A stretch of 64,000 bases of DNA from Schmidtea polychroa (lineage: Eukaryota). The stretch spans positions 4,094,001 to 4,158,000 of the forward strand of contig CM097885.1 of NCBI GenBank assembly GCA_044892525.1, in the 5' to 3' direction. Shown here piece after piece: positions 23,011 through 24,152 of the stretch (position 1 is its first letter; the number at the start of each line of letters is the position of its first letter). The notes under the pieces were generated by a model, which searched no databases, had not been told where the DNA came from, and worked only from the letters and a program-made list of their open reading frames with translations. A program made the translations under genes and the position numbers.

Positions 23011-24152
23011 AGTAGATGGATTGGGCACCGCTGGCACAGGGCACCGCTAGCACAGTACCCCCCCTCCCCCTCCCCCCGTCGGTAAGATTTTCAAAAATAT
23101 TCTAAGTCTAAAAGTACATTTTTTTTTCAAGGTCAAATTTAAACAAAGACATATGACTCATCAAGGTCATTGAAACAAAGACCATGAGTCATATCATGAC
23201 TCATCAAATTTTTCAAGGTCATTTAAACAAAGACCATGACTCATCCGATGACTCATCAAGGTCATTTTCAAGGTCATATGACTCATAATAAGACTCATCA
23301 AGGCCAAAAATTTTTCTCGAGGTCATTTAAACAAAGACCATGACTCATCAAGGTCATTTTCAAGGGCATATGACTCATAGTATGACTCATATGACCTTGA
23401 AAAATTTTTCTCGAGGTCATATGACTCATAATATGACTCATCAAGGTCATTGTAACAAAGACCATGACTCATCAAGGTCATTTTCAAGGTCATATGACTC
23501 ATAGTATGACTCATATGACCTTGAAAAATTTTTCAAGGCCATATGACTCATCCTATGACTCATCAAGGTCATTCTCAAGGTCATATGACTCATCCGATGA
23601 CTCATCAAAATTTTCAAGGTCATTTTCAAGGTCATCTGAGTCATCCTATGACTCATCAAGGTCATTTTCAAGGTCATATGACTCATAATATGACTCGTTA
23701 AGGTAATTTTCAAGGTCATATGACTCATAGCATGACTCATATGACCTTGAAAAATTTTTTCAAGGTCATATGCCTCATAATATGACTCATCAAGGTCATT
23801 CTCAAGGTCATATGACTCATCCGATGACTCATCAAAATTTCCAAGGTCATCTGAGTCATCCTATGACTCATCAAGGTCATTTTCAAGGTCACGTGACTCA
23901 TCCAAGGTCATATGAGTCATCGCGATGACTCATCAAGGTCATATTATTATTTTTAAAAATATTATTATTTTTATTATTATTTTTAAAAATATTATTATTT
24001 TATTTTTAATTTTTTCAAAGTTCCCGCCAACGAAAATTAATAATCGATAGCTCATTTTAAAGCTCAATCCAAGACCTTTCGAAAGAGCCATATATCTTAT
24101 TATTATTCGAATGAGCCATATATCTTATTATTATTATTATTATTATTATTAA

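Follow-up and report, generated by a model that had tools for sequence, protein, structure and literature searches.

The window (the whole 64,000-nucleotide stretch of DNA analysed here) contains a Maverick/Polinton element whose terminal inverted repeats (TIRs) are filled with short words resembling animal transcription-factor sites. Are these arrays regulatory DNA, do they serve replication or packaging, or are they simply repeats? The pattern of the letters suggests that each array is probably an enhancer driven by host AP-1 and NR5 factors, working like the hr regions of baculoviruses.

The element and its surroundings

We identified both the long TIRs and the 6-bp target-site duplication expected of a Maverick/Polinton element (Table 1). 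The terminal motif AGTAGA is identical at both ends and agrees with five of the six letters of (AGT)2, where (AGT)2 or (AG)3 is expected. The TIRs (about 1.2–1.3 kb) align with 1161 matches and 41 mismatches over ~1.2 kb. Six of 24 sequencing runs (one organism, two studies) hold 54–75% of the TIR's words.

Table 1. Features of the window, with positions counted from its first nucleotide
Feature	Position	Strand	Remarks
Maverick/Polinton element	23011..44555	.	21,545 bp including 2.9-kb hAT insertion; ends AGTAGA...TCTACT
Target-site duplication ATTTAC, left copy	23005..23010	+	6 bp
Target-site duplication ATTTAC, right copy	44556..44561	+	6 bp
Left TIR	23011..24220	+	Inner limit approximate, (ATT)n run at its end
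Right TIR	43230..44555	-	Inner limit approximate
G-rich tract, three G runs	23058..23077	-	Between terminus and array
Left site array	23127..23941	+	31 intact and 3 broken AP-1-type, 26 intact and 6 broken NR5-type, 5 AACAAAG
Right site array	43517..44450	-	35 intact and 3 broken AP-1-type, 34 intact and 4 broken NR5-type, 5 AACAAAG
Tandem array, 12 copies of 35-37-bp unit with TATA-like end word	24229..24671	+	Just inside left TIR only
DNA polymerase B gene, C-terminal part	24907..27552	-	PHROG DNA polymerase, E 3e-21; 48-52% to intact-looking relatives
hAT transposon within polymerase gene	27553..30486	-	8-bp duplication; 2.9 kb
DNA polymerase B gene, N-terminal part	30487..31880	-	
Adenain-type protease	34202..34561	-	Peptidase_C5, E 1e-6
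Probable double-jelly-roll major capsid protein	34617..35843	-	Atlas 0.98 to cluster with PF21738 on 22% of members
rve integrase with chromodomain	37232..38353	-	Pfam rve E 1e-5, below gathering score
A32-type packaging ATPase	38967..39593	-	Pox_A32, E 3e-7
TBP-like gene	39693..40130	+	PF00352, E 2e-15
Promoter region of SSB-like gene	40903..40997	+	AACAAAG-word match, CCAAT-like box, TGASTCA, TATAAAA
SSB-like small ORF	40998..41381	+	Conserved; predicted gp2.5-like single-stranded-DNA-binding fold
Host cytochrome P450	21200..22606	-	Start 521 bp from left array; transcribed away from element
Host cytochrome P450	45781..47301	+	Start 1331 bp from right array; transcribed away from element

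A hAT transposon splits the polymerase gene, and this copy of the element is thus probably non-autonomous. Derivation of the arrays from the hAT was considered and rejected: the hAT subterminal word, TACCGGTA, is unrelated to them and the array words are absent from the hAT. The capsid candidate has no Pfam match, and its Atlas recognition lies below that tool's threshold. Neither this protein nor the polymerase was matched in a PDB sequence search, and exact look-up of seven proteins of the window found none of them.

The integrase ORF contains an (ATT)n run (37862–37963) inside a 108-nt stretch bordered by GT and AG, which is probably an intron made of microsatellite, judging by those borders; short relatives lack the stretch. 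The window has seven long (ATT)n runs, every one of them within the element; the 42 kb of host DNA contain none. A gene for a Bcl-2-like protein with a hydrophobic tail is divided into two parts (41987–42507 and 42613–43113), apparently with splice borders at the gap. It stands head to head with a gene for a signal-peptide coiled-coil membrane protein, and the two have a CCAAT/TATA promoter in common.

The 35–37-bp units beside the left TIR each end in TATATAAAA and point inward, antisense to the polymerase gene. The GC-rich half of the unit recurs in two further copies at 32151–32305, upstream of the polymerase. This array could be a landing array for the TBP-like protein of the element, or an unrelated minisatellite.

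Two host cytochrome P450 genes flank the insertion. For the right-hand one, the best named relatives are from Dugesia japonica (49–50% identical), with vertebrate and arthropod matches at 32–34% (20 matches among 8000 candidates scored), which makes a triclad planarian the probable host. The left-hand P450 ORF has a shorter C-terminus than its paralogues. Elsewhere in the window, 294 almost perfect copies of an 11-bp satellite (3825–7060) directly follow a RING-finger gene.

Composition, phasing and variation of the arrays

The sequence-only reading described dense AP-1-like and receptor-like arrays in both TIRs, and both arrays are present in this single element. The left array (23120–23945) holds 31 TGASTCA, 28 ATGASTCAT, 25 TCAAGGTCA, 3 TAAACAAAG and 5 AACAAAG; the right (43515–44455) holds 35, 32, 27, 3 and 5, respectively. 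Receptor-type sites matching YCAAGGTCA are intact in 26 copies on the left and 34 on the right, and include a common intact variant, CCAAGGTCA (2 left, 7 right). Each end carries 57–69 intact sites, and the element about 126. The proposed enrichment over shuffled sequence is borne out: arrays with up to 35 copies of a motif compare with no more than four in any of 500 dinucleotide shuffles per motif (means 0.00–0.44, maxima 0–4). The remaining 62,235 bases of the window contain two TGASTCA, no ATGASTCAT and one TCAAGGTCA. Exact consensus sites far above chance are what a composite AP-1/NR5 enhancer should contain. Short palindromic words can nevertheless match some known factor by chance.

Two details of the earlier description needed adjustment. 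The arrays had been called almost entirely motif units, but exact motifs cover 63% of the left and 66% of the right array, the remainder being short fixed-length spacers and A/T tracts. The interspersed third word, TAAACAAAG, occurs only three times per TIR; the constant word is AACAAAG(AC), and all five copies in each TIR lie in the outer 40% of the array.

The arrays follow a grammar. A module of 42 bp consists of a receptor site, a 1-nt gap, an AP-1 site, a 3-nt gap, a second AP-1 site and a further 3 nt; the last T of that second AP-1 site is also the first base of the next receptor site. In variant modules the last receptor site is swapped for an inverted one plus an A/T tract, or for CAAAATTT; those with AACAAAGAC are confined to the outer 40% of the array. 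TCAAGGTCA is strand-polarised and points inward in 22 of 25 left and 26 of 27 right copies. The left array is about 815 bp long and the right 934 bp, a difference made up of three whole-module indels (92, 12 and 12 bp). As the two arrays differ by these indels and by 28 substitutions, an assembly artefact is unlikely. A coding role was rejected, with 15–51 stops in every one of the six frames. The outermost 110 bp of the TIRs contain, instead of the array, a 16-bp doublet and the G-rich tract, which we take to be GC-box- or G4-like.

Successive module distances of 30–32, 42–44 and 49–52 bp, with one of 39 bp in the left array, correspond to about 3, 4 and 5 helical turns (left modules 30–32, 42–43 and 49–52 bp; right modules 30–31, 42–44 and 50–52 bp). 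The best period is 10.26–10.32 bp. Its vector strengths are 0.82 and 0.85. When the module classes were offset at random, 0.08% and 0.04% of 5000 arrays did as well, figures that are optimistic because the classes are interderived and the TIRs are copies; about 1% is fairer, given ~4 independent lengths. A/T tracts are not phased (vector strengths 0.31 and 0.28). The phasing points to proteins sitting on one face of double-stranded DNA.

The same repeats could also be a neutral minisatellite of quasi-palindromes, in which hairpins arising during strand-displacement replication promote slippage and template switching, and any resemblance to AP-1 and NR5 sites is coincidental. In four 400-base tests on the left array, single strands do fold much better than shuffled sequence (z -6.8 to -13.3), and the variable 3-nt spacers coincide with loops of possible hairpins. 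The indels between the TIRs are module-sized, flips of TGACTCA to TGAGTCA and inverted receptor sites improve the hairpins in 7 of 30 paired blocks, and unrelated tandem arrays exist in other Mavericks and in this element. However, a central C:C mismatch is retained in 23 of the 30 paired blocks and no compensatory stem change was seen among them, and sequence rather than pairing is therefore what is kept. Template switching, moreover, copies mutations as readily as it removes them, so that the two arms should drift together. Neutral growth also leaves unexplained the lengths of whole helical turns, the variants that match published gel shifts and the copy of the words in an internal promoter (both below). 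We therefore consider a purely neutral origin rather unlikely; hairpins probably help the array to expand.

Variation between the two ends carries further information, with the proviso that the ends belong to one copy and are mutually non-independent. Across the 30 paired AP-1 blocks, six of the nine possible variant letters in the 3-nt spacer are common to both TIRs, compared with two of 54 in the 9-mers (Fisher p 3e-5, in a test that, like that for phasing, was designed post hoc). Both 9-mer variants common to the two TIRs preserve TGASTCA. Sites kept better than spacers, seen here in one copy by a post hoc test, are what a composite AP-1/NR5 enhancer would produce. By pairing, 54 of the 66 left sites with a right partner are intact in both TIRs, nine are broken in one, two are broken differently and one is broken alike. 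Left/right mismatches are not significantly rarer in cores (15/530) than elsewhere (13/291, p 0.23), as expected for decay after insertion.

Variants common to both TIRs appear to be older than private ones, predating the last copying of one end onto the other, and selection would then have preserved the cores while the element was active. On these patterns the array looks like selected protein-binding DNA and not a plain minisatellite. Some observations count against the enhancer reading. First, one receptor break, TCAAGGGCA, is common to both TIRs (it is absent from S4 Table of PMC8673669). Second, the spacer of tandem receptor sites is nearly fixed (TTT 16, TTC 5). Finally, none of the 34 related loci listed, of which two reach far enough, carries such an array.

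Candidate factors, the internal promoter and related loci

The array words match known elements exactly. TGACTCA is the AP-1/TRE site (excerpt of PMC13513840), and TCAAGGTCA is known both as the NR5/ERR monomer element, or ERRE (excerpt of PMC4978380), and as the FTZ-F1 element (PMC8673669). In gel shifts with Schistosoma FTZ-F1, probes containing TCAAGGTCA and CCAAGGTCA were bound, and CCGAGGTCA, CCAAGGCCA and TCAAGGTAA were not (PMC8673669, S4 Table). Both intact receptor forms of the array are bound forms in that experiment, and the unbound ones resemble breaks confined to one TIR, which include TCGAGG, GGCCA and GGTAA forms.

Schmidtea mediterranea has one NR5A and one NR5B receptor and lacks ERR (NR3B) and GCNF (NR6A) (excerpt of PMC8363021; PMC11637366). 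Since the host is probably also a triclad, NR5 is the receptor candidate and the ERR alternative named in the sequence-only reading is unlikely. Its AP-1 plus NR5A-type reading gains putative support from the variation pattern, the helical phasing, the FTZ-F1 gel shifts and the words in the internal promoter. Of its combined Fox/Sox proposal, Sox remains for AACAAAG, which we take to be a Sox-like word, and Fox was rejected. The Fox consensus is RYAAAYA, and none of the ten copies fits it. Planarians, presumably, encode jun and fos.

Could the binder be encoded by the element itself? In this alternative the words would be sites for the integrase or for the product of an unannotated ORF, as in the TIRs of Galileo/Foldback elements, where internally repetitive TIRs with transposase sites are known (excerpt of PMC3573991). 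The half-site ATGAC/GTCA is common to both words, and several ORFs of the element lack a family match. A small basic protein of two related loci (L015:129-494 and L018) has a basic stretch resembling that of bZIP proteins, no clear zipper and no Pfam match, bZIP included. Neither pattern searches nor Pfam searches (16 + 11 proteins, one short ORF left out) found a bZIP or receptor-type zinc finger in the element, however, and a conserved ORF of uncharacterised family is predicted to fold like a single-stranded-DNA-binding (SSB) protein. The words are, besides, two full and different animal consensus sequences and not one half-site. A binder of the element's own is, on balance, highly unlikely.

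The promoter of that ORF repeats words of the array. Its TGASTCA, at 40946 and 52 bp ahead of the ORF, is the sole one in the interior of the element, and 17 nt of the promoter are identical to the first AACAAAG word of the array, a match length that 1 of 200 shuffles reaches. The ORF's structure model (pLDDT 85) had four top VIA matches, namely ASFV CP312R (Z 6.2), DUF2815 (5.7), T7 gp2.5 (5.7) and Enc34 SSB (5.3), with the next at 3.8. The fold call is tentative because Z scores of 5.3–6.2 lie below the usual caution line of 8; Foldseek gave no match at E <= 0.001, nor did Atlas. As the ORF is conserved in relatives and its top structural matches are of SSB type, it is probably an early replication gene, and the model suggests that it probably provides, lineage-wide, a single-stranded-DNA-binding protein in a Maverick. 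The ORF of this copy ends earlier than in relatives.

An array that binds host factors need not activate transcription. It might act as a decoy, a chromatin boundary or a tether, so that the ends stay open or an extrachromosomal form remains attached to host chromatin. Such sites usually occur singly or in small numbers in cellular enhancers, and the roughly 126 intact ones here are more than an enhancer normally needs. The 10.3-bp period is near that of nucleosomal DNA, and CpG is depleted in the arrays (observed/expected 0.34 and 0.20, compared with 0.92 in the element interior). The promoter copy of the words, however, points to transcription, and we give such a passive role hardly any credence.

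We identified at least 34 related loci (ATPase 53–77% identical) in a protein scan of the metagenome_contigs collection; protein scans of viral_contigs found no relative of the element. None of the 34 listed loci contains an AP-1 or receptor array, and most are too short to reach it: six extend at least 3.3 kb upstream of the ATPase and two at least 3.9 kb, as far as the array, and none has a clear terminus. One of the two far-reaching loci (L024) starts 4.1 kb upstream of the ATPase; a 14-bp repeat of another kind opens it, and a single ATGAGTCAT and a TATA-like word come next. The array seen here is probably family-specific, to judge from these sequences. As to whether the motifs are conserved in related elements, the refuting condition set by the sequence-only reading, these mostly short loci lean towards a negative answer.

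Traces of the words occur elsewhere in the lineage. AAAGAC-ATGACGTCA has three matches among the 34 listed loci, in L001 and L013, about 90–160 bp before ORFs (shuffles mean 0.29, maximum 2). Long ORFs contain 4 AP-1 and CRE sites in 106 kb, and the 33 kb outside them contain 11. These 11, however, include one site counted three times in near-identical loci, a tandem pair, and two sites that probably lie in short or cut ORFs. Receptor-type sites in these loci are all in coding DNA (7/7). Of the two links, then, the one to bZIP factors reaches weakly into the lineage and the one to the receptor does not.

The array patterns were found in neither viral_contigs nor metagenome_contigs, and bacterial genomes gave one single site at chance level. 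The AP-1 doublet alone was found at ten viral loci, none with a receptor site and mostly as 12-bp duplications of ATGACTCAT.

The scans also returned other observations. Three loci (L001:190-3328, L006:222-719 and L013:675-1263) contain captured host-like genes, by eye a dual-specificity phosphatase, a TRAF-like protein, a RING protein and a ubiquitin-conjugating enzyme. Ahead of the TRAF-like gene of L001 stands a 64-bp unit, present twice, that contains ACAAAGAC, a CRE and a TATA-like word. A giant-virus genome bin (L043:1462-1563) has five TGASTCA within about 100 bp of apparently non-coding DNA.

Proposed function and comparison with known systems

We propose that host AP-1 (Jun/Fos-type bZIP) and NR5 (FTZ-F1/HR39-type) proteins would bind the array, with a Sox-type host factor perhaps a third binder at AACAAAG. 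When the AP-1 and NR5 factors are active, the enhancer would switch the element's genes on. The genes so transcribed would be early ones (the SSB-like gene and the polymerase, for example), and the TBP-like protein of the element possibly serves later genes. The array would grow by slippage or unequal exchange of whole modules and be copied from end to end during replication; that of the present copy is by now decaying.

The same factors, host or viral, might instead bind for replication or packaging. The array would then be an auxiliary origin, at which the ends are opened or tethered for the protein-primed polymerase, or else a phased packaging signal recognised together with the A32 ATPase. 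Both TIRs carry the array, where a linear genome needs cis signals, and the phasing and spacer results fit this role equally well. Baculovirus hrs serve as origins as well as enhancers (excerpt of PMC13513840). In adenovirus, packaging repeats lie 220–400 bp from the end, are redundant and two turns apart, overlap the E1A enhancer and bind COUP-TF (excerpt of PMC5033970). The array is comparable in position to this packaging domain, which is phased and overlaps an enhancer, and an origin or packaging role is therefore the main rival. However, the array words recur in an internal gene promoter, and COUP-TF binding did not track packaging in adenovirus (same excerpt). The arrays start 116 bp (left) and 105 bp (right) from the element ends, further in than the roughly 50 bp within which host-factor sites of an adenovirus-type auxiliary origin lie; NFI binds nt 23–36 (excerpt of PMC8160523). 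We judge a replication or packaging role unlikely, and retain the enhancer reading.

As an enhancer, the array names two candidate host inputs for Maverick activation, AP-1 and an NR5 receptor. In Hydra and in bilaterians, injury is soon followed by the opening of AP-1 sites (excerpt of PMC8049744), and planarians are a host group with routine RNAi, wounding and chromatin assays. If the reading is real, host genes next to any insertion acquire about 126 intact factor sites as neighbours; in the window, the start codons of two P450 genes lie 0.5 and 1.3 kb from the arrays. A broader proposal, which we regard as doubtful, is that Mavericks of regenerating flatworms carry a phased, multi-factor TIR super-enhancer that reads wounding through AP-1 and tissue through tissue-specific NR5, the first concrete reactivation trigger of an animal Maverick. 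Each family would build its own array to suit the factors of its own host, and insertions would hand the enhancer to neighbours such as the two flanking P450 genes.

That viral repeats can be built of host-factor sites is a known principle, from baculovirus hrs and adenovirus ends. Among the titles and abstracts searched, which included few subscription papers and neither the first descriptions of Polintons nor the Repbase reports, none described arrays of factor sites in the TIRs of Mavericks. Nor did a printed precedent turn up for the placement, the density, the phasing or the pairing of receptor and AP-1 sites suggested here.

The element resembles animal Mavericks in its 6-bp duplication, TIR length (46–1447 bp in the accessible part of PMC8097293) and polymerase, integrase, ATPase and protease genes; its ends are close to the AGT type, and it has a probable capsid gene. 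Its lineage adds TBP-like, SSB-like and Bcl-2-like genes. The accessible part of that source describes Maverick TIRs by their length and 6-bp end motifs, with no internal factor-site arrays, and states that animal Maverick particles have not been observed. Galileo/Foldback TIRs also contain tandem modules, and the two ends of a single copy have different numbers of them, but those repeats are secondary transposase sites of a cut-and-paste element (excerpt of PMC3573991), whereas the present array consists of host-factor words in an element with an rve-type integrase.

The left end of adenovirus offers host-factor sites near the ends of a linear, protein-primed genome (protein priming is presumed for the Maverick), with redundant phased repeats and variable spacers of fixed length (excerpts of PMC8160523 and PMC5033970). 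According to those excerpts, NFI and Oct-1 each have a single site in adenovirus, no more than about 50 bp from the end, and its seven A-repeats are confined to one end, whereas the Maverick has 57–69 intact sites at both ends, more than 100 bp in, of unrelated words. The NFI/Oct-1 analogy drawn by the sequence-only reading is thus weak in position, and baculovirus hrs are the closer analogue.

Baculovirus hrs are repeat arrays of 390–880 bp in a nuclear dsDNA virus, with imperfect palindromes, host bZIP sites (CRE/TRE) and both enhancer and origin roles, and their enhancer strength correlates with palindrome and CRE/TRE counts (excerpt of PMC13513840). According to the same excerpt, they are scattered round a circular genome, their 30-bp palindrome is bound by viral IE1, and the host sites, mostly CRE with 0–2 TRE each, lie between the palindromes. 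The Maverick array has neither a 30-bp imperfect palindrome with an EcoRI core nor a dispersed placement; its host-type sites are the whole repeat (31–35 TRE), paired with NR5-type sites in the TIRs of a 19-kb integrating element, and its likeness to hrs is one of working only.
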